Source: Escherichia phage vB_EcoM-ep3. Taken from it: DNA of 42,351 bases. Location: the sequence record NC_025430.1; one strand, written 5' to 3'. Positions 2,382 through 41,571 of this stretch are shown one piece after another. Numbering within the stretch: position 1 is the stretch's first letter; each line of letters opens with the position of its first letter. The notes below the pieces were generated by a model. That model saw only the letters and a program-made list of their open reading frames with translations, was not told the DNA's origin and searched no databases. Position numbers and translations under genes: made by a program.

Positions 2382-3524
2382 TTAAGCCGCACCAACCAGG
2401 TGGGCGTTTTTGTTGGCGTGCCACGCTGGCAGGCTGATGGTCTGGATTTTATCGCCGTATCCAGGCCAAACACCTGTGCGCACGCATTCAGCGTAGACAC
2501 GCAAATCATGCTGGTATTGTGCGCGGCCAATTTCTACGCCTTCGCTATCCAGTACATAAACACCAACTGCGTAAGGCGGTTTTTTCTCAACGGCGATAAA
2601 CGCAAAGTGTTTAGGATAACCACGCCAGAAATCAGGGCGGCAGCGGCACAGAACACCGGTCACCGGATCAGTCCAGTAAACTGATAATTCTGCTTTGCCT
2701 TCGTGCGGAGGCGTGCACTTGCCCTGTTCCAGAGCCAGACGCGTGCCGTCCATGTAGTATGCGTGTTGCACGTCATAGCGCCAGTTGGCGATTGATTTTG
2801 CGAACCCTTCCGGGCTGGCATCTTCGGTGGTTTTCAAGTCACCAATGATGTCTTTGACGTGGTGCAGGATAGCGAACGCTGCCGGATGATTCATTACCGC
2901 GTCACGCATGGCAAAAATTTGTTCAAACGCTTCCGGTGATAGCACTTTGCGTTCGCTGTTATTGCGCTGCCATTCTTCCAGCACATCTGACCACAGTGTG
3001 ACTTCAACGCCGTTGGCGCGCAGCAGGTTGGCCAGCTCATGACGGCTGCCGCTGGTGGATAGTTTGCCAGGACGGTCAATATTCAACTGGTTGATGATTT
3101 CTTTCAGGTCTGGCGCTTTCATCGCGTTAAGCTGTTCAGTAGTCCAGGTTTCAACAGGCTGGTTTTCCAGGATGCGTTCAACCAGTTCGCCTTTGTTGCC
3201 ACCAGTCAGCAGCTTAGGCAGGCGGCCTTCGTTCAGCTTGTTGACCATTTCCACCAGCACTTCACGGTCATCAATAGCATCAGGCACATCAGGACGGCGC
3301 AGCGCCAGGCAATAGGTTTTTGCGAATTCTTCCGGTTCAAGAATTGCCATATGCACAGCCGTGCCGATTTCCTGCGCTGGTGTTGGCGTGCGGTCATTAG
3401 CAGCAGTCACAACAGCGTTGTAGTGCATCGGGCTGCGGTGCACCAAATCCAGGCCAGATTTACTGATGCCTGGTCCGCCGTGGTATTCAGCGTTGGGAAT
3501 ACCTTCGTAAACTCCTGGTTTCAT
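2382..3524 (-). CDS. PD-(D/E)XK-type nuclease (phage exonuclease-like)
   Basis: About 380 aa; N-terminal GIPNAEYHGG...SKSGL motif typical of phage RecB/Cas4-like exonucleases; start moved to ATG at 3524 (MKPGV) with GAGG 8 nt upstream, rather than the longer ORF-track start at 3539. Confidence 0.7.
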   Translation of the reverse strand: MKPGVYEGIPNAEYHGGPGISKSGLDLVHRSPMHYNAVVTAANDRTPTPAQEIGTAVHMAILEPEEFAKTYCLALRRPDVPDAIDDREVLVEMVNKLNEGRLPKLLTGGNKGELVERILENQPVETWTTEQLNAMKAPDLKEIINQLNIDRPGKLSTSGSRHELANLLRANGVEVTLWSDVLEEWQRNNSERKVLSPEAFEQIFAMRDAVMNHPAAFAILHHVKDIIGDLKTTEDASPEGFAKSIANWRYDVQHAYYMDGTRLALEQGKCTPPHEGKAELSVYWTDPVTGVLCRCRPDFWRGYPKHFAFIAVEKKPPYAVGVYVLDSEGVEIGRAQYQHDLRVYAECVRTGVWPGYGDKIQTISLPAWHANKNAHLVGAA

Positions 3525-3575
3525 TATGTTACCTCGCAATTATTATTTAACATGAATTCGGATTAACTGCGGTGA

Positions 3576-3605
3576 ATTATGGCTGACGTGTTGTTATACT
3601 GTCAA
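3576..3605 (-). promoter_or_regulatory. candidate sigma70 promoter of the leftward early operon
   Basis: On the - strand: TTGACA (rc of 3600-3605), 18-nt spacer, CATAAT (rc of 3576-3581); about 45 nt upstream of the exonuclease start. Confidence 0.45.
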
Positions 3606-3662
3606 CTTATTTGTAACTAACATTGTTTAGATCAGCGTCACGCTCGCTAATCAACAAACCTT

Positions 3663-3714
3663 AGCTGTACATCAGCTATGCGTTTTTTGCACATCGCGGC
3701 TTGATTGACGTCAA
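3663..3714. promoter_or_regulatory. palindromes in the divergent intergenic region (candidate operators)
   Basis: AGCTG-N5-CAGCT at 3663-3677 and perfect 10-bp palindrome TTGACGTCAA at 3705-3714, between the two divergent promoters. Confidence 0.35.
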
Positions 3715-3730
3715 TGAACATTACTACTGG

Positions 3731-3760
3731 TTGCAACGTCGCCATGTAGTAACATACAAT
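3731..3760 (+). promoter_or_regulatory. candidate sigma70 promoter of the rightward operon
   Basis: TTGCAA (3731-3736), 18-nt spacer, TACAAT (3755-3760); about 40 nt upstream of the helicase start. Confidence 0.4.
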
Positions 3761-3797
3761 TGCGAATACTTTAAATGATGGCGAATGAACGATAATT

Positions 3798-5216
3798 ATG
3801 GGCGTAATACTTAGGGACTATCAATCCGACATTATCAATAAGGCGCGCCTTTCTATGCGGCGCAACCGCCGCGTGTTATTGCAGGCACCAACAGGCGCGG
3901 GCAAAACTGCGCTGGCGTCATACATGGCTGGGGAAACATCGGCCAAAGGCCAGCAGGTGTGGTTTATTTGCCACCGCGCTGAACTGGTATTACAGACCAG
4001 TTTGACATTCAGGAAGTTCGGCATTGACCACGGCTTTATTGCCGCAGGCTATCCCATGAACCTGCGCGCCGGGGTGCAGGTGTGCAGCATCGACACCCTG
4101 AAAAACCGCCTGCACACCCTGCCAGCTCCTAAGCTGGCCATCATGGACGAAGCGCACCACTGTGGCGCGGCTGGATGGGCGCGCGTCAACGCCTGGCTGT
4201 TCGAGAATGGCGCGTATGTAATCGGCCTGTCAGCCACGCCAAAGCGCCTGGACGGCACCGGCCTGGATGACCACTTTGATGACATCGTGTTGGGGCCATC
4301 GGTGCGCTGGCTGATGGATAACGGCCACCTGTCTGATTATCGCATGTTCTGCCCGGACATCCCTGACATGAAGGGTGTACGCAAACAGATGGGCGATTTC
4401 TCAAAAGGAGAAACCGCCGAGAAGATGGATAAGCCGAAACTAACCGGCAACATCATCAGCCACTGGCTGAAATACGCCAGGGGCATGAAAACGGTTGGCT
4501 TTGCGGTCAACATCGCGCACAGCCGCCACTTAACGCAGGCATTCATTGATTCAGGCATCCGCGCCGCGCACCTGGATGGCGGCACCGATAAGGCGGAACG
4601 CAAGCGCATCATTCAGGACTATGCCAACGACAACCTGGATGTGATTTTCAACGTGTCGCTGTTCGGTGAAGGTTTCGACCTGTCAGCTATCGCACAGACT
4701 GACGTGACGATTGACTGCCTGATTGACGCGCAGCCCACACAATCATTGTCGCTGGTTTTGCAGAAAGATGGCCGCGTGTTGCGACCGTCCAAAGGCAAAA
4801 CCGCCATCATCCTGGACCACGCAGGCAATGCGCTGCGTCATGGCTTCCCTGACGATGAACGGGAATGGTCACTGGCTGGCGATGATAGCGGCAGCAAATC
4901 CAGCAGTGCTGGTGGTCCACCGCCGCCAGTCATCTGCAAAGGCTGTTTCAACGCCATCCGCCGACCACTGCCGCCGAAGTGCCCGCACTGCCAGAAGGAA
5001 CTACAGGCCGAAGCCAAAGAAATTGAAGTGGCAGAAGGAGAACTGCGCGAAATGGACGAACGCGCCAAAGAAAGCCTGCGCGCCAAGATGAGGCGCGAGG
5101 AGGACGCTTGCAAGGATATTGGCGCACTTACTGCCCTGGCGATGAAACGCGGGCTGCCGAACCCATCAGGGTGGGCCATAGCGAAGATGGGTGGAAGAAG
5201 ATTTAAGCGCAAATAG
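3798..5216 (+). CDS. superfamily-2 DNA helicase with C-terminal zinc ribbon
   Basis: 472 aa; motif I LLQAPTGAGKT, motif II AIMDEAHH (DEAH-like), GLSATP motif III, C-terminal CKGCF...CPHCQ zinc ribbon. Confidence 0.85.
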   Translation: MGVILRDYQSDIINKARLSMRRNRRVLLQAPTGAGKTALASYMAGETSAKGQQVWFICHRAELVLQTSLTFRKFGIDHGFIAAGYPMNLRAGVQVCSIDTLKNRLHTLPAPKLAIMDEAHHCGAAGWARVNAWLFENGAYVIGLSATPKRLDGTGLDDHFDDIVLGPSVRWLMDNGHLSDYRMFCPDIPDMKGVRKQMGDFSKGETAEKMDKPKLTGNIISHWLKYARGMKTVGFAVNIAHSRHLTQAFIDSGIRAAHLDGGTDKAERKRIIQDYANDNLDVIFNVSLFGEGFDLSAIAQTDVTIDCLIDAQPTQSLSLVLQKDGRVLRPSKGKTAIILDHAGNALRHGFPDDEREWSLAGDDSGSKSSSAGGPPPPVICKGCFNAIRRPLPPKCPHCQKELQAEAKEIEVAEGELREMDERAKESLRAKMRREEDACKDIGALTALAMKRGLPNPSGWAIAKMGGRRFKRK

Positions 5217-8134: not shown

Positions 8135-10444
8135 ATGAGTGCACAACAAAACTATAAGGATTTGACCGAACAGGAAATTGCAGAAGCACTTTCCTACATC
8201 GACGCCGGTTGCGACCGTGAAACATGGGTGCGCATGGCGATGGCGGTTAAATCGGAACTAGGCGACGGCGGTTTCACCGTCTGGAATGACTGGTCACGCC
8301 AGTCTGACAAGTACAACAGCAAAGACGCGCGCGACACCTGGAAATCAGTGAAGCGTCACGGCGGCATTGGCATTGGCACCCTGATTGGTGAGGCGCAGCA
8401 GTTCGGCTTTTCCCTGAACGATGCAGAACGCACGCCGCTGACAGCGGAAGAAATCGACGCACGCAAGCGCAAGCGCGAAGCCGAAGAAAAGGCAGAGCAG
8501 CAGCGCCGCGCCGAACGTATGGCGCAGGCAGCCGAACAGGCGCGCAACATATGGGAATCAGCCACCGAACTGGAAGGCGATGAACACCCCTATTTGCAGC
8601 GCAAGCAGGTGCAGGCGTTCGGCCTGCGCGTTGGGCGGTTCTGGACCGAAAAGCGCAGCATTGATGGTGCGCTACTGGTTCCTGTGCGTAACATTGACGG
8701 GCAGATCACCAGCTTGCAGGCCATCTTCCCGAACGAAAACCCACAGCTAGGGCGTGACCGTGATTATTTGCCTGGCGGCCAGAAGCGCGGATGCTTCCAC
8801 GTCATAGGCGGCAAGCCGACTGGCGGAAGCCCGGTTATTGTCATCTGTGAGGGCTATTCAACCGGCGCGTCAATCCACCAGGCAACCGGCTACTGCGTTG
8901 TAGTGGCGTTTGATGCCGGTAACGTTCCGACCGTGGCCAAGTTGATGCGCCAGCAGTTCGGACGCGCAACAATTGTTGTGGCAGCCGATAACGACCAGTG
9001 GCACGAAGATGGCAAGCAAAATGATGGCGTTCACTACGCGCGCCAGGCCGCAACCACATGCGGTGGCCTGCTGGTGGTTCCGAAGTTCGCCGCATTAAGC
9101 GACAAGCCGACCGACTTTAACGACCTGCACAACCTGCAAGGGCTGGCAGAAGTTAAGCGGCAGATTAACGCCGCAATACCTGAACCGGCAAATGACAACT
9201 TTCTGCCGCTGGATGCAACGGTCAACCCGTTCATGTACCCGCACATGAGCCACCAGCAAAAGCCATTAAGCACCTGGGAAAACCTGGAATGGCTGCTGGA
9301 ACAGTACGGCATCACGGCGCGATATAACGAAATCAGCAAAGATGTGGTGGTGACCATTCCAGGGCGTGACTACGGCGTTGACGCTGCGGCCAACTGTTCC
9401 CTGGCGGAAGTTTCCAGCCTGTGTGCCCGCAACGGTATGCCAAAAGGTGATGTGGGCGACTACATCAAGCTGATTGGCGTGGCCAACCGTTACAACCCGG
9501 CTGCTGATTTCATCACGTCACGGCCATGGGATGGCGTCAGCCGCATTTATGACCTGGTTGACACCCTGACCACGCCGGAAGGCTTTGACCGCAGCCTGGT
9601 GCTGATGATGGTGCGCCGCTGGCTGATTTCTGCCGTGGCTGCCGTCATGAAGCCAACCGGGTTCTGGTCCAAAGGCGTCCTGGTGTTACAGGGTGACCAG
9701 TCATTGGGGAAAACGTCCTGGTTTAAAGCACTGCTGCCGCCGACCATGCGCGACCTGGTGAAAGATGGCGCGACCATCGACCCTAGCAACAAAGACAGCG
9801 TGACCACCGCGATTGGCCACTGGATGGTTGAGCTGGGCGAACTAGATGCAACGTTCCGCAAGGCTGACATTGCCAGGCTGAAATCCTTCATCAGTTCTGA
9901 CGTGGACATGCTGCGCCGCCCTTATGACCGGCTTGAATCGAAGTACCAGCGCCGAACGGTGTTTTTTGCGTCAGTGAACCCCAAACACTTCCTGGCCGAT
10001 GACACCGGGAACGTTCGCTGGTGGACCATTCCGGTGACCGGCGTGAACTACGCCCACGACATCGACACGCAACAGTTATGGGCAGAAGTGGCGCAACTGT
10101 ACCGTGACGGCGAACGCTGGTGGCTGGATCGTGATGAAGAAGCCATGCTGGAAGGCGTCAACAAGGAACACGAATCCATTGACCCGGTAGAGGAAATGAT
10201 ACTGGCGCGCTTTGAGTGGGGCAGCGAACGCATCAGCGCCTACCGCGAACATACCGCCAGCCAGGTGTTGCAGGAAATCGGATTTGATAAGCCGAACAAG
10301 TCACAGGCCACGCATTGCAGTAACGTGCTGCGCAAGCTGACCGGGCAGGAACCGCGCAAGACGAAAAACGGGCGGTTCTTCAACCTGCCGCCGAAGGTGT
10401 TGCAGCCGGATTACCGGCGACCAGATGACAATTCACCGTTTTGA
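8135..10444 (+). CDS. DNA primase-helicase (P4 alpha-like)
   Basis: 769 aa; N-terminal primase-like region, TOPRIM-like acidic motifs (VIVICEGYSTG, VVAADNDQ), C-terminal NTPase region with Walker A QGDQSLGKTS; size and domain order match P4 alpha-type primases. Confidence 0.88.
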   Translation: MSAQQNYKDLTEQEIAEALSYIDAGCDRETWVRMAMAVKSELGDGGFTVWNDWSRQSDKYNSKDARDTWKSVKRHGGIGIGTLIGEAQQFGFSLNDAERTPLTAEEIDARKRKREAEEKAEQQRRAERMAQAAEQARNIWESATELEGDEHPYLQRKQVQAFGLRVGRFWTEKRSIDGALLVPVRNIDGQITSLQAIFPNENPQLGRDRDYLPGGQKRGCFHVIGGKPTGGSPVIVICEGYSTGASIHQATGYCVVVAFDAGNVPTVAKLMRQQFGRATIVVAADNDQWHEDGKQNDGVHYARQAATTCGGLLVVPKFAALSDKPTDFNDLHNLQGLAEVKRQINAAIPEPANDNFLPLDATVNPFMYPHMSHQQKPLSTWENLEWLLEQYGITARYNEISKDVVVTIPGRDYGVDAAANCSLAEVSSLCARNGMPKGDVGDYIKLIGVANRYNPAADFITSRPWDGVSRIYDLVDTLTTPEGFDRSLVLMMVRRWLISAVAAVMKPTGFWSKGVLVLQGDQSLGKTSWFKALLPPTMRDLVKDGATIDPSNKDSVTTAIGHWMVELGELDATFRKADIARLKSFISSDVDMLRRPYDRLESKYQRRTVFFASVNPKHFLADDTGNVRWWTIPVTGVNYAHDIDTQQLWAEVAQLYRDGERWWLDRDEEAMLEGVNKEHESIDPVEEMILARFEWGSERISAYREHTASQVLQEIGFDKPNKSQATHCSNVLRKLTGQEPRKTKNGRFFNLPPKVLQPDYRRPDDNSPF

Positions 10445-10451
10445 ATAATAA

Positions 10452-10475
10452 CCCGCTTCGGCGGGTTTTGTTTTT
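10452..10475 (+). terminator. intrinsic terminator after the primase gene
   Basis: CCCGC-TTCG-GCGGG hairpin (10452-10465) followed by TTTTGTTTTT. Confidence 0.8.
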
Positions 10476-10540
10476 ATTGATAGGTATAAACGATTATATC
10501 ATTTACATAAGTAAATATAGAATTCATCTATCGAAAACGA

Positions 10541-10565
10541 GACAAACCAAACAAACCAAACAAAG
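10541..10565 (+). repeat. CA-rich tandem repeat leader (CAAACCAAA x2.5)
   Basis: GACAAACCAAACAAACCAAACAAAG directly upstream of the methyltransferase ATG, where no Shine-Dalgarno is visible; shares the 8-mer GACAAACC with the 17-bp motif. Confidence 0.5.
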
Positions 10566-10567
10566 TA

Positions 10568-11545
10568 ATGGGTAGCATTGTGAATAAATACGAATTGCAT
10601 TTAGGTGATTGCCTGGAAGTTATGAAGTCTATTCCAGCCGGTAGCGTTGATTTGGTTCTGTGTGATCCGCCGTATGGCACCGCTGGCGGAATGGGAAAGG
10701 GTGAAGAACGCTATTCACGAATTGCGAACGCTGAATGGGATAACGCTATTTCTCCGCAGGCCATTTTTGAAGAATGCAACCGCGTTTTGCGAACTAACGG
10801 CGCTCTTATTCTGTTCAGCCAGGAACCTTACACCAGCAAGTTAATCACAGCGGCGCATGGAAATCTGCCTTTCAGTTATCGACTAATGTGGCTGAAAGAC
10901 CATTTCTCTAACTCGCTGTTGGTAAATAAAGCGCCTGTTTCATACTTTGAAGATTTAGTGGTGTTCTTCAAGAAATATGACACGCTGGCACAGCATCCGC
11001 TAAGGGATTATGCCAAAAAAATCATGGAATACATTGGCAGAAATATAAAGCAGATAAACACTGATTTAGGTCACAGGCGCGCGGAACACTTTTTTTATGT
11101 TGAATCAACGCAGTTCGGGCTGTGTACTGAAAAGACATACAACCAGATTATTGCGCACTATGGGCTTAGTGTGTGTGACTGGCTTATGACTTATGCTGAA
11201 ATGTTAGAAATTGACCGCAGGTTTGCCCGCAGGTTTAACCTGGCGGATGGTGCAAAATACAAATCTAACGTTCTTCAGTACAAAAAGGATTATACCGGCC
11301 TTCACCCAACACAGAAGCCGGTAGCACTGCTGGCTGACATCATCAGGACATATTCAAACCCTGGCGAAACGGTTCTAGATTTCACTATGGGGAGCGGGTC
11401 AACAGGAGTCGCCTGCATCAATGAAGGCCGTAACTTCATAGGAATTGAACTTGATGAAACCTATTTCCAGACAGCGCAGGGGCGCATAATGGAAGCAGCA
11501 GCCGCAAACGATAACCAGGCAAGTAGCAATTCTGTTGTAGCATAA
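10568..11545 (+). CDS. DNA methyltransferase (N6-adenine/N4-cytosine, beta-class)
   Basis: 325 aa; motif IV LCDPPYGT precedes motif I LDFTMGSGSTG (beta-class order); AT-rich relative to neighbours; no cognate restriction enzyme gene nearby. Confidence 0.85.
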   Translation: MGSIVNKYELHLGDCLEVMKSIPAGSVDLVLCDPPYGTAGGMGKGEERYSRIANAEWDNAISPQAIFEECNRVLRTNGALILFSQEPYTSKLITAAHGNLPFSYRLMWLKDHFSNSLLVNKAPVSYFEDLVVFFKKYDTLAQHPLRDYAKKIMEYIGRNIKQINTDLGHRRAEHFFYVESTQFGLCTEKTYNQIIAHYGLSVCDWLMTYAEMLEIDRRFARRFNLADGAKYKSNVLQYKKDYTGLHPTQKPVALLADIIRTYSNPGETVLDFTMGSGSTGVACINEGRNFIGIELDETYFQTAQGRIMEAAAANDNQASSNSVVA

Positions 11546-12431: not shown

Positions 12432-12749
12432 ATGAGCCTGGCAACCGATATTCTGTGGCGCGCTTTTGTTAAGCAGGCGAAACAGAAGCCAACGCCAAAA
12501 TCCGCACCAGTGGAGGCAAAACCAAAACCGGAAGTCACGGCAATCAGCAACCGCAACCTGCACCTGGCGCGCGTCCCTGGCTGTCAGCGTCTGGCTTGGG
12601 GTTGGCAGGTTACGTGCATTGATGGCAAGCAGAAACACAAACTGGGAACCTTCAAAACAATGCCACGCGCACGCATAGCATGGCGACTTTGGCACCTGTG
12701 GAAGCGCCGGGGTTTTGCCGACATCCCAACCGGACCAAACCACGCCTAA
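12432..12749 (+). CDS. hypothetical basic protein
   Basis: Trimmed to ATG 12432 (MSLATDILW); lysine/proline-rich N-terminal half; followed by a terminator. Confidence 0.45.
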   Translation: MSLATDILWRAFVKQAKQKPTPKSAPVEAKPKPEVTAISNRNLHLARVPGCQRLAWGWQVTCIDGKQKHKLGTFKTMPRARIAWRLWHLWKRRGFADIPTGPNHA

Positions 12750-12756
12750 ACACTAA

Positions 12757-12776
12757 CCGCCTTCGGGCGGTTTTTT
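12757..12776 (+). terminator. intrinsic terminator
   Basis: CCGCC-TTCG-GGCGG hairpin followed by TTTTTT (12771-12776). Confidence 0.8.
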
Positions 12777-12838
12777 ATTGCGCAAAAGATGACAAGTATG
12801 ACAAAATAACAACGTCACCAATAACAGAGGAATTCATC

Positions 12839-13120
12839 ATGATTGAACAAAAGCTAGACCGCATCATTGAACTGCTGGAAATCATCGCGGAAGCACAACC
12901 GAAACCGCGCGTTAGTCGTAGTCAAATCAGTGATGCAAAGAGCATTATCGTTTCGCACCGAGAACAACTGAGAGGAAAGCGCATCACGTTTGGTGAATTC
13001 TGTGAAATCATTGGCGTGGAGAATTCAAAGCAAAACCGATTAAAGTTTGGTGCTGCAATGACTGAGGCTGGAGTCAAACAATACAGAACAAAAAACGCAC
13101 GTTATTATTTATTTGCATGA
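12839..13120 (+). CDS. hypothetical protein (AT-rich cargo gene)
   Basis: Trimmed to ATG 12839 (MIEQKLDRIIELLEI) with AGAGGA 8 nt upstream; the longer ORF-track version would read through the upstream terminator; terminators on both sides. Confidence 0.5.
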   Translation: MIEQKLDRIIELLEIIAEAQPKPRVSRSQISDAKSIIVSHREQLRGKRITFGEFCEIIGVENSKQNRLKFGAAMTEAGVKQYRTKNARYYLFA

Positions 13121-13140
13121 TTACTTTTATCTATTGATAC

Positions 13141-13164
13141 AGCGCCTTAATGGCGCTTTTTTTG
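13141..13164 (+). terminator. intrinsic terminator
   Basis: AGCGCC-TTAAT-GGCGCT hairpin followed by TTTTTTTGTTT. Confidence 0.8.
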
Positions 13165-13185
13165 TTTATGAGCGACTCAATAAAA

Positions 13186-13449
13186 AAGTTGGTCACCGTA
13201 GTCACCTGGTAGTCACCGCTTAAACCAATGATATATATACGAAATGACCAAGTGACCAAGGGAGACAAGGAAATAAAAGATTTTAAAAGGTGACAAAAGC
13301 ATTGAGCGCATTAGTACCTAACAGCAACTTTATGAAAACATGGTCGAGTTGGTCACCAAGCCCATAAAAACGGCGCTTTTTCCTTAAAAATCAAGGTGAC
13401 CGAGAAAAACACCGCTTGTCTCCCTGTAGTCACCTATTTCTGGTCACCG
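13186..13449. repeat. iteron array: about 10 copies of GGTCACC/GTCACC core in both orientations (candidate replication origin)
   Basis: Copies at 13191-13197, 13201-13206, 13212-13217 (tandem GTAGTCACC), 13245-13260 (TGACCAAG x2), 13289-13294, 13351-13357 (within palindrome TTGGTCACCAA), 13395-13401, 13429-13434, 13442-13448, with an AT-rich stretch at 13221-13240; no ORF. Confidence 0.7.
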
Positions 13450-13507
13450 TTCATCTTTTCGGCTACAATCCCTATATTGACTTTTATTTATAATTATTGG
13501 GGGTTAC

Positions 13508-13942
13508 ATGGAATTACCGCGCACTGTGCAGGAAATAGCTGACGTTATTGGCCGTGAACGTGCGCTATATCTTATCGGACAACTACCAAAATTGTGGGTG
13601 CCATCGCAGCAGTACCACAAAGTAATTTTGTATGTGCCAAAGCGGATTCGGCCCAATGACCCCCTGGTGAAAATTCTTGGATGGAGTGACGCCAGCAAGA
13701 TGGTGCAGCACTTCGGTGGTGAAATGCTTCACCCGGCTAATTGCGAATACATTTACCGCCGTTTCATCCACAGCAGCATCAAGCGGATGCACAGCGAAGG
13801 AATGGACGCAAAAGCCATTGCGGAACTGCTGGACGTTTCAGAACGCACCGTGAAGCGGCACTGCACTGACAAACCCCACAAAGACACATCACCTGCAAAT
13901 GACAACACTCCCGAACGACTACTAACCGCTATGGGGCAATGA
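13508..13942 (+). CDS. Mor/C-family-like transcriptional activator
   Basis: 144 aa; GGGGG RBS; central FGGE...P segment and C-terminal HTH (MDAKAIAELLDVSERTVKRH) resemble the Mu Mor/C late-activator layout; sits immediately upstream of the lysis and structural genes. Confidence 0.55.
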   Translation: MELPRTVQEIADVIGRERALYLIGQLPKLWVPSQQYHKVILYVPKRIRPNDPLVKILGWSDASKMVQHFGGEMLHPANCEYIYRRFIHSSIKRMHSEGMDAKAIAELLDVSERTVKRHCTDKPHKDTSPANDNTPERLLTAMGQ

Positions 13943-41030: not shown

Positions 41031-41571
41031 TAACATACAGCTTATACTACCTGCCGCAGACGCGCGAGGCGATGAATAAATGGGAAATATTGTTGCGAAA
41101 TGCACTTGCGTGATATAGGATTAAATTGTCAGTTGTAGAGATTCACGCTGTCGAGAGATACACGATGACCGCCGTGAAAGGACGGCACACAACAGGTAAG
41201 AGCATTGAACCCGTAGACCTCGCGGATTTGGTGAAAGGTGCCGCGCATTGCTCTTTCCGTTGTGGTGAATGCGCAGGCTGATGCGCGACCAATGTATAAA
41301 CAGCGCTCATGGCAAGCAGTAACCAATCTGCGCCTCAAGACAGCGTCACTGGTAGTGCGGGCGCTCTAACCAGTAAGCCGGAGTTCAGCACCGGCCACCA
41401 CAACACGCGCCGTGATGCGCTTTTGCGAACACTTCCAACCACCAGGGTGTTACCTCGCAACGTGAAAGCGCATCGCAGTGCGACATTCGCACAGACTGGA
41501 ACTTACCAGACTAGTGATTCCAATAAGGCAGGTGATCTGTATCTCGCATCACAGCGTCACGTGACACAAAA

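Follow-up and report, generated by a model that had tools for sequence, protein, structure and literature searches.

The stretch of DNA analysed here, called the window below, is the 42,351-nucleotide sequence record NC_025430.1 of Escherichia phage vB_EcoM-ep3, the complete and circularly permuted genome of an E. coli myovirus that is Jilinvirus-like (Iiscvirinae). Our subject is an open reading frame (ORF) of 93 amino acids (aa) on its plus strand (12839..13120), which an earlier note on this DNA had described as an independently transcribed moron, that is, an AT-rich cargo gene lying between two intrinsic terminators upstream of an iteron region. We find that the ORF product stands alone but is paralogous to the winged helix at the C-terminus of the phage's own primase-helicase, and that the repeats beside it are most likely the origin of replication; the gene is not foreign cargo and most likely tunes the start of replication. 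In local order, the primase-helicase gene (8135-10444) is followed by a DNA methylase gene, two genes of unknown function, a terminator, the ORF and a second terminator, after which come an AT-rich, repeat-dense spacer of about 345 bp, the gene of a 144-aa late activator, and those of holins, endolysin, spanin and terminase.

The start codon at 12839 is preceded, with an 8-nt spacer, by a ribosome-binding site, AGAGGA (12826..12831, plus strand), and every homolog begins with MIEQKLD at the same codon and is 92-93 aa long. Between the ORF and its homologs synonymous sites are saturated and the nonsynonymous rate (dN) is 0.27-0.70; in the first 17 codons dN is 0-0.03 at a synonymous rate (dS) of about 0.9-2.3, and, with dS saturated, the dN/dS ratio is not computable for most pairs. 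The ORF is under purifying selection, and the earlier note was right to treat it as a real gene with its own ribosome-binding site. The segment is AT-rich to a moderate degree, the ORF having a G+C content of 42.7% (39.8% at third codon positions, GC3) against 53.3% for the genome.

Both of the terminators that had been proposed were found by a scan. The early-operon terminator upstream, CCGCC-UUCG-GGCGG with a T-run (12755..12776, plus strand; stem 12755-12772), has a folding energy (dG) of -11.8 kcal/mol and a z-score of -3.5 against shuffles, and the ORF terminator, GCGCC-loop-GGCGC with T7 (13141..13164, plus strand; stem 13141-13157), has a dG of -11.1 kcal/mol and a z-score of -3.7. The scan alone is weak evidence, with 7 terminator-like sites in the 3-kb region versus 3.9 +/- 1.8 expected, and the two owe their credibility to conservation. 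All relatives, with or without the ORF, share one and the same upstream hairpin, and a hairpin with a T-run stands 3' of the ORF in every ORF-bearing locus examined, though the stems differ entirely (GCGCC, GGCCGC, CCCGGC, GGCCCCA, CCCGCA), which is the signature of conserved function rather than of conserved sequence.

A candidate sigma70 promoter of the ORF can be read at 12778..12807 (plus strand), where a -35 TTGCGC (12778-12783) is separated by an 18-nt spacer from a -10 CAAAAT (12802-12807). The match is conserved in position with a better -10 (CATAAT, TACAAT) in the relatives L003, L004, L005 and L011, the equivalents being TTGC(G/A)(C/G)-18-CATAAT in L003/L004 and TTGCGC-18-TACAAT in L011, and the promoter may be active. 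In and just after it (12789..12819) lie iteron-like motifs, ATGAC at 12789-12793 and 12798-12802 and GTCACC at 12814-12819 (about +7 to +12), which form a candidate operator for auto- or initiator-mediated repression; GGTGAC...GTCA(C/T) is kept at the same positions in the same four relatives. A search of 12600-13600 against Rfam returned no RNA family. On the minus strand, a promoter-like site, TAGATA-18-AATAAT (13104-13133), is antisense to the 3' end of the ORF; it is probably fortuitous, since promoter-like sites in the region are no more frequent than by chance (3 found versus 3.4 expected).

A paralog of the primase-helicase C-terminal domain

The homology and structure searches that the earlier note had recommended proved informative. 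The AlphaFold2 (AF2) model of the ORF product has a predicted local distance difference test (pLDDT) score of 86 overall and of about 90 over aa 30-93, and it consists of a helix at aa 2-19, further helices at aa 27-44, 51-58 and 64-76, and strands at aa 48-50, 80-83 and 88-91, with a hairpin at 80-91. The predicted topology, H1-S1-H2-H3-S2-wing-S3, is that of a winged-helix fold (aa 27-91), with aa 64-76 as the recognition helix and TKNA (aa 84-87) as the wing tip. Searches of PDB and BFVD with the ORF returned winged-helix DNA binders (SrnR, NolR, BigR, ArsR, GntR), proteins of Pseudomonas phage PPpW-3 and, weakly, large phage primases. The best structural matches are repressors of the ArsR/SmtB and GntR types (SrnR, NolR, BigR, ArsR and GntR N-terminal domains), from which the ORF differs in having no Pfam membership and no evident metal or ligand site. 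The EF-hand proteins and designed coiled coils returned by sequence searches of PDB were set aside as spurious, the coiled-coil match reflecting the N-terminal heptad helix. This helix (aa 2-19, MIEQKLDRIIELLEIIA) carries a 3-4 heptad of I2, L6, I9, L13 and I16 and is invariant in Jilinvirus-type homologs despite saturated synonymous change; we infer that it serves in dimerisation or in binding a partner. The protein is probably dimeric; relatives with two domains, fused or split, suggest that winged helices work in pairs.

The primase-helicase (8135..10444, plus strand) consists of PriCT_2, Toprim and VapE-like domains recognised with Pfam, followed by a C-terminal winged helix, and is classed as a DNA primase in PHROG. 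Its C-terminal winged helix (10238..10399, plus strand; about aa 702-755), with the wing tip RK-TKNG-RFF, independently models as the same winged helix as the ORF, at an AF2 pLDDT of about 90 over H-S-H-H-hairpin. The first lead to a relationship was a weak BLASTP match of the C-terminus of the ORF (GVKQYRTKNARYY) to aa 737-749 of the primase (GQEPRKTKNGRFF), which at E 0.39 is not significant alone. A hidden Markov model (HMM) of the ORF family matches the Toprim+VapE primase-helicase of L052 at aa 517-566, directly after the VapE domain (E 2e-5, and 1e-5 in a re-run). In profile-profile alignment with hhalign, six near-identical primase C-termini gave a weak match (probability 22%), and 14-15 diverse ones gave a probability of 86-87% and an E of about 4e-6 (4.5e-6) over 52 columns covering S1-H2-H3-wing; the control, the ORF family against a late-activator profile, reached a probability of 8% over 12 columns. 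Because of the HMM match, the profile-profile match with its control and the model, we conclude that the ORF is a free-standing paralog of the primase-helicase C-terminal winged helix. It belongs by homology to an already known lineage, and departs from it in lacking an attached helicase, having its own start, ribosome-binding site and terminators.

A C-terminal winged helix of this kind is typical of self-loading primase-helicases and Rep initiators of the VapE-like family, among them Rep1 of staphylococcal pathogenicity islands (SaPI) and PriRep5; the sequence homology and the H-S-H-H-hairpin topology of the ORF are shared with the equivalent domain in the primase-helicases of this phage group. 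Compared with such a domain, the ORF is free-standing and dispensable, has an extra N-terminal heptad helix and would form a transcription unit of its own.

The repeat region as presumptive origin

That an iteron region lies downstream of the ORF is confirmed by counting, since GTCACC/GGTGAC occurs at 8 sites in 266 bp, where the genome rate would give 0.3 (Poisson P about 1e-9). We identified about 12 sites, direct and inverted, between 13190 and 13448, within a presumptive replication origin at 13187..13448 that has a G+C content of 35-40%. Direct iterons about 10 bp apart are TGGTCACC at 13190-97 and TAGTCACC at 13199-206 and 13210-17; inverted ones are ATGACC (13244-49), GTGACC (13252-57), GGAGAC (13261-66) and GGTGACA (13289-95), the AT-rich centre extends over about 13218-13346, and further iterons lie at 13350-57, 13395-401 (minus strand), 13416-23, 13427-34 and 13441-48. 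The region thus has what was sought in an origin of this type, namely at least six short repeats of 5-8 nt, in both orientations, flanking an AT-rich centre, here of 35-40% G+C.

The layout of 13187-13448 matches that of SaPI origins, and the ORF, too, adjoins short iterons placed in both orientations around an AT-rich centre. The SaPI Reps are self-loading helicases whose C-terminal winged helix reads iterons of 5-6 nt in opposite orientation around such a centre (PMC9371898), and the VapE domain of the window's primase matches SaPI Rep1 (7PDS) at E 1e-18. The arrangement differs from the SaPI type in that the origin does not directly follow the initiator gene but is found 2.7 kb farther downstream. 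We conclude that the repeats are most likely the origin of replication and that the primase-helicase is its presumptive initiator.

Comparison between phages points to the protein that reads the repeats. ECO1230-10 (L097), L016 and L017 have the same architecture as the window, but with GTCCCA/GGGAC repeats (class B; GGGACTATC / GTCCCA in ECO1230-10) in place of GTCACC (class A). The C-terminal domain of the primase differs in recognition helix and wing between the two, with SQTTHCAGVLRKL...RKSGSNRLF in class B and SQATHCSNVLRKL...RKTKNGRFF in class A, so that GTCACC pairs with RKTKNGRFF and GTCCCA with RKSGS(N/R/K)RLF; PPpW-3 and L055 likewise combine SGS-type primase wings with GTCCC repeats. 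The late activator of ECO1230-10 is essentially identical to that of the GTCACC phages. Since the class of iteron changes together with the primase C-terminal domain but independently of the activator, the repeats belong to the primase-helicase, and on this covariation the iterons would be cognate to the winged helix of the initiator. Origin and initiator specificity appear to have been swapped as a module between near-identical phages (ECO1230-10, L016 and L017 versus ECOO78, which is L001).

The wing tip of the ORF follows the same division. Within a genome the tips of the ORF and the primase agree, being TKNA and TKNG in the window and TSGP and KSGS in PPpW-3. T-type ORF wings, RT(K/S/A)xxRYY, accompany GTCA(C/T) iterons in the window, L003, L004, L005, L011, L068 and L073; SGS-type wings, KSGSxRY(Y/F) or TSGPRRYY, accompany GTCCC iterons in L007, L044, L028 and PPpW-3, and L020 has a third type of ORF wing together with GTGCC-type repeats. 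In L068 and L073 the ORF and the activator are nearer to the SGS group overall, yet these loci have a T-type wing and GTCA iterons, so that in this small sample the association of wing and iteron is not simply an effect of two clades.

Two further observations concern the repeats. A motif within the iteron region, CCTTAAAAATCAAGG at 13380-13394 (CCTTATAAATCA in relatives), is kept as far as the Pseudomonas-type L007 and L020 and may be a host-factor site or an unwinding element. Across the whole genome, GGTCACC occurs 22 times versus 4.4 +/- 2.4 in shuffles and GTCACC 56 times versus 18.7; most of these copies lie in coding regions (e.g. at 9349, 9692, 10033, 38448 and 38473), and the excess could be an effect of codon usage or represent secondary initiator sites.

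Downstream of the repeats lies the late transcriptional activator (13508..13942, plus strand; 144 aa), which has a C-terminal helix-turn-helix (HTH), matches PHROG 836 at E 1e-30 along with Pfam HTH profiles, carries the same annotation in relatives and is followed by the lysis cassette. A promoter scan placed a candidate promoter for it at 13441..13469 (plus strand), TGGTCA-17-TACAAT, whose -10 is kept in all relatives and whose -35 overlaps the last iteron in the window. The leader of about 40 bp between this -10 and the ATG (13470-13507, CCCTATATTGACTTTTATTTATAATTATTGGGGGTTAC) is almost invariant even where activators are 55-65% identical, which points to a conserved element in cis that could be an RNA leader or a site for a protein.

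Distribution of the gene

A module of about 400 bp containing the ORF (12783-13181) is cleanly missing from ECOO78, PT1, HeidiAbel and Alux-21, in which the early terminator abuts the repeats. ECOO78, PT1 and Alux-21 match the flanks of the ORF, and HeidiAbel_Bas97 matches the window over long stretches at 83-96% identity, mostly 91-96%. AAAAG is found at both ends of the indel (12784-88 and 13183-87) and the ORF-less junction reads GTGACAAAAG; the junctions give no direction, be it loss or gain. Since all four phages are plaque-forming, the ORF is dispensable for lytic growth. The earlier note had held that absence of the ORF from close relatives without effect would speak against its reading; such absence is what these four phages display, yet it is also a defining feature of a moron, and a module absent from viable nearest relatives is a moron in the classical structural sense.

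Close homologs of the ORF number only seven among 5.8 billion proteins, and an exhaustive profile search brought the family to 34 cluster representatives. Most members are of 90-124 aa, and some, of about 165 aa, carry two tandem copies of the C-terminal domain. In the cultured phage PPpW-3, ORF-60 is a full member and the adjacent ORF-61 is a second copy of the domain without the N-terminal helix. These two-domain forms, fused or split, were noted in P0010, P0013, P0014, P0016, P0019, P0022, P0025, P0026 and L014 (3399-3930). Scans of the ORF against Pfam, PHROGs, NCBIfam and PADLOC gave nothing meaningful: a 13-residue match to DUF4083 (E 1e-3) is below the curated cutoff, hits to DUF3874 are weak, and neither the ORF nor a tandem member nor PPpW-3 ORF-60 had a PADLOC hit at E <= 0.1. 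The family is unannotated, being in none of Pfam, NCBIfam and PADLOC and having no significant PHROG match.

With the late activator as bait, 80 loci were recovered from IMG/VR, about 11 of which hold a member of the ORF family; a crude survey of the nearest upstream ORF in these 80 suffered from noise in high-G+C contigs and did not reveal what occupies the slot where the ORF is missing. The slot is shared by three phage contigs of 40-43 kb, by short contigs with 41%-identical or tandem members, and by PPpW-3. Counting the window, contig, phage-record and IMG/VR loci together, there are 14 distinct loci, all with an identifiable activator, and in 12 of them the member is the direct upstream neighbour of the repeat region and the late-activator gene, on the same strand and 266-431 bp before the activator, a position held even at 20-30% ORF identity. 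Identities to L003/L004/L005 fall in the same rank order for the ORF (65/60/48%), the activator (92/86/64%) and the primase C-terminus (99/91/84%). In Pseudomonas-type relatives the G+C content of the ORF equals that of the genome, and in the enterobacterial phages it is lower.

The earlier note had also looked to expression in lysogens, which does not apply here. The cI-like repressor found in HeidiAbel between exonuclease VIII and helicase is absent from the window (2382-5216), and the integrase is reduced to a 21-aa C-terminal remnant (41048-41110). The window genome is a decayed-temperate, effectively lytic variant, and with no lysogeny module lysogenic expression is moot. The phage group has been described as facultatively temperate, with lysogeny genes decayed in many members and a lifestyle called enigmatic (bioRxiv 10.1101/2024.09.12.612763). 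Searches of 5,426 complete E. coli genomes and of plasmids gave no match to the ORF.

Elsewhere in the neighbourhood, the start of the DNA methylase gene (10400-11200) is AT-rich, with 35-40% G+C, and the gene as a whole has 45% G+C and a GC3 of 47%; it is more atypical in composition than its neighbours and arguably has a stronger claim than the ORF to be acquired DNA. In Alux-21 (L002) an unrelated 69-aa ORF (3160-3369) is inserted directly upstream of the early terminator, so that a second variable spot seems to lie where the early operon ends.

Possible roles at the origin of replication

The earlier note had assigned the ORF no function, and although none is annotated, a specific, testable hypothesis can be put in that place. 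We propose that the ORF product is an iteron-binding modulator of origin firing, a dispensable accessory tuner that is probably autoregulated, and we give this proposal about an even chance of being correct. Host RNA polymerase would transcribe the ORF from TTGCGC-18-CAAAAT (12778-12807), the terminators insulating the unit from the early operon on one side and the origin on the other, with the transcript ending at 13164. The protein would dimerise through its N-terminal helix and would bind the GTCACC iterons of the initiator both in the origin (13187-13448) and in its own promoter (12789-12819), which it would repress. At the origin it would modulate loading of the primase-helicase, the likeliest mode being competition that limits or times initiation, and its effect on initiation would probably be negative. 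As the last iteron overlaps the -35 of the late activator, occupancy could also shift the switch from replication to late transcription and the timing of late genes. A bolder form of the proposal, an "origin decoy" in which Iiscvirinae-like phages carry an optional, free-standing and dimerising copy of the initiator winged helix that evolves together with the iterons and, at the origin, either licenses the self-loading primase-helicase or competes with it, we regard as possible but rather unlikely.

In its manner of working, the ORF would most resemble the Cnr protein of P4 or the Rep/Cop autoregulators of plasmids, without belonging to the Cnr family. Cnr (ORF106, DUF5375) is a copy-number regulator acting on the alpha primase-helicase; like the ORF it is an accessory protein of about 100 aa in an element with a primase-helicase and iterons, and the role proposed for it, regulation of the origin-binding activity of the initiator, is the one proposed here. 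The alpha protein is described as binding type I octamer iterons, TGTTCACC (Ziegelin et al. 1993, as cited in PMC8628076), to be compared with TGGTCACC in the window. The likeness would be functional only and not one of membership: hhalign against P4 ORF106 gave a probability of 1.4%, the alpha origin-binding domain likewise showed no similarity, Pfam scans of the ORF and 29 family members gave no DUF5375 hit, and the window's primase shares with alpha only the Toprim region. In addition, cnr shares an operon with alpha, which it immediately precedes, whereas the ORF lies beside the origin, and Cnr is considered to act by protein-protein contact. With the Reps of iteron plasmids (RepE, pi, RepA, TrfA) the proposed role has in common the recognition of iterons by winged helices, two per functional unit, as in the tandem and split members. 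Dimers of such Reps bind operator repeats at their own promoter and thereby repress it. Compared with them, the ORF is not an initiator, is much smaller and belongs to a lytic phage.

Several observations weigh against our proposal or limit it. The -10 of the ORF, CAAAAT, is weak in the window and a stringent promoter scan made no call there, and no terminator was seen, on reading the sequence rather than scanning it, in the 77-nt gap upstream of PPpW-3 ORF-60, so that independent transcription may not be universal in the family. In their recognition helices the ORF (SKQNRLKF...) and the primase C-terminal domain (NKSQATHC...) are unlike, and the helix of the ORF also varies among phages with identical iterons; for this reason identical specificity of the two proteins is not assured, and winged helices can also serve as protein-binding modules. 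The correlation of wings with iterons comes from about 12 loci that belong to few lineages, and phylogeny confounds it in part. Finally, the overlap of iteron and late-activator -35 is absent in class-B phages, and phages with the same iterons thrive without the ORF, so that any effect of it must be subtle.

Some of these points lend themselves to other explanations. The ORF could be a pure transcription factor that recognises ATGACA or GTGACAA-type sites (12789-12803, 13289-13296) and controls its own promoter and that of the late activator, making an early-to-late switch with no role in replication. Its fold is like that of ArsR/GntR-type repressors, it always adjoins the late-activator gene, its recognition helix is unlike that of the primase, and AAAAGATGACAA in its promoter resembles, and recurs in the intergenic centre as, AAAAGGTGACAA (13285-13296), the central site being GGGGTAAA in the ORF-less ECOO78, Alux-21, PT1 and HeidiAbel. 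However, the loss of the site is argued from four closely related genomes, the ATGACA/GTGACA motifs are themselves variants of the iteron, which makes the two models hard to separate, and class-B phages lack the iteron overlap of the -35; homology to the C-terminus of the initiator and the parallel covariation of wing tip and iteron point to the iterons instead. We consider this explanation unlikely, though it deserves to be taken seriously. Less probable still, in our estimate, is that the ORF mimics a protein-binding module in the manner of Cnr, its winged helix, its N-terminal helix or both binding the primase-helicase and altering origin binding or helicase activity without reading DNA, either as a heterodimer with the primase C-terminal domain or by docking at that domain's site on the ATPase ring. 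Yeo et al. in 2002 are said to have proposed that Cnr is a winged helix that disrupts the dimer of the alpha origin-binding domain. Paralogy with the primase C-terminal domain would fit such a mode, as would the N-terminal 17 residues, invariant in Jilinvirus-type homologs in which the primase C-terminus is 84-100% conserved, which suggests a conserved protein partner; SaPI Rep C-terminal domains, moreover, swap onto neighbouring ATPase bodies and are needed for full ATPase/helicase activity (PMC9371898). Against it stand the lack of sequence similarity to Cnr and to the origin-binding domain of P4 alpha, a wing tip whose covariation with the iterons is more easily explained by contact with DNA, and the iteron-like motifs in the ORF promoter, which suggest DNA binding.

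A further rival, close to the reading of the earlier note, is a classical moron, the ORF being horizontally acquired cargo that acts on the host or on competitors (by exclusion, defence or counter-defence) and is unrelated to the neighbouring control region. The ORF is present or absent between flanks about 92-96% identical, has its own promoter-like site and terminator and no annotated function, is patchy in distribution, and in enterobacterial phages is lower in G+C than its neighbours. It is thus, if its candidate promoter is active, like the morons of lambdoid phages (the Hendrix/Juhala definition), extra promoter-gene-terminator units of lower G+C between elements adjacent in relatives, and to this extent the name moron stands. 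What does not stand is the foreign origin that cargo implies, for the slot is fixed in 12 of the 14 loci across distant relatives, the ORF co-diverges with its flanks, its G+C content equals that of the genome in Pseudomonas-type relatives, and it is a paralog of a domain of the phage's own initiator, a core phage protein. The phage, furthermore, has no lysogeny module and no prophage state, no prophage copies turned up in the E. coli genomes or plasmids searched, and PADLOC gave no hit. Built like a moron, the ORF nevertheless has neither a foreign origin nor a prophage to be expressed from, and we judge the cargo explanation improbable. Hardly any credence is left for a non-functional or spurious ORF in an AT-rich spacer, which would account for a short reading frame that no database annotates and cultured relatives lack; a conserved start codon and length of 92-93 aa, a dN far below the saturated dS, an N-terminus invariant at a dS of about 1, 34 cluster representatives found by HMM and a confidently predicted fold form a pattern of conservation by which it is effectively refuted.

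Returning to the modulator of origin firing, replication control in the small lytic myoviruses of the Jilinvirus/Iiscvirinae has been unstudied, and our analysis locates a probable origin, assigns its iterons to the primase-helicase C-terminal domain and links an unannotated protein family to the same recognition domain, of which it is a free-standing paralog. It also holds a warning for annotation, as a native regulatory gene can look in its structure like a moron in every respect. If the ORF protein does compete for iterons, it would offer a portable handle on the timing of phage replication and a compact model of how wings read short repeats. Should the decoy version hold as well, it would bring plasmid-like negative feedback on initiation into a lytic phage, with origin occupancy coupled to the late switch; it would be the first trans-acting regulator described for self-loading helicases of the VapE/PriRep type, and a natural wing-tip code, TKN with GTCAC and SGS with GTCCC, would provide a means of reprogramming origin specificity.

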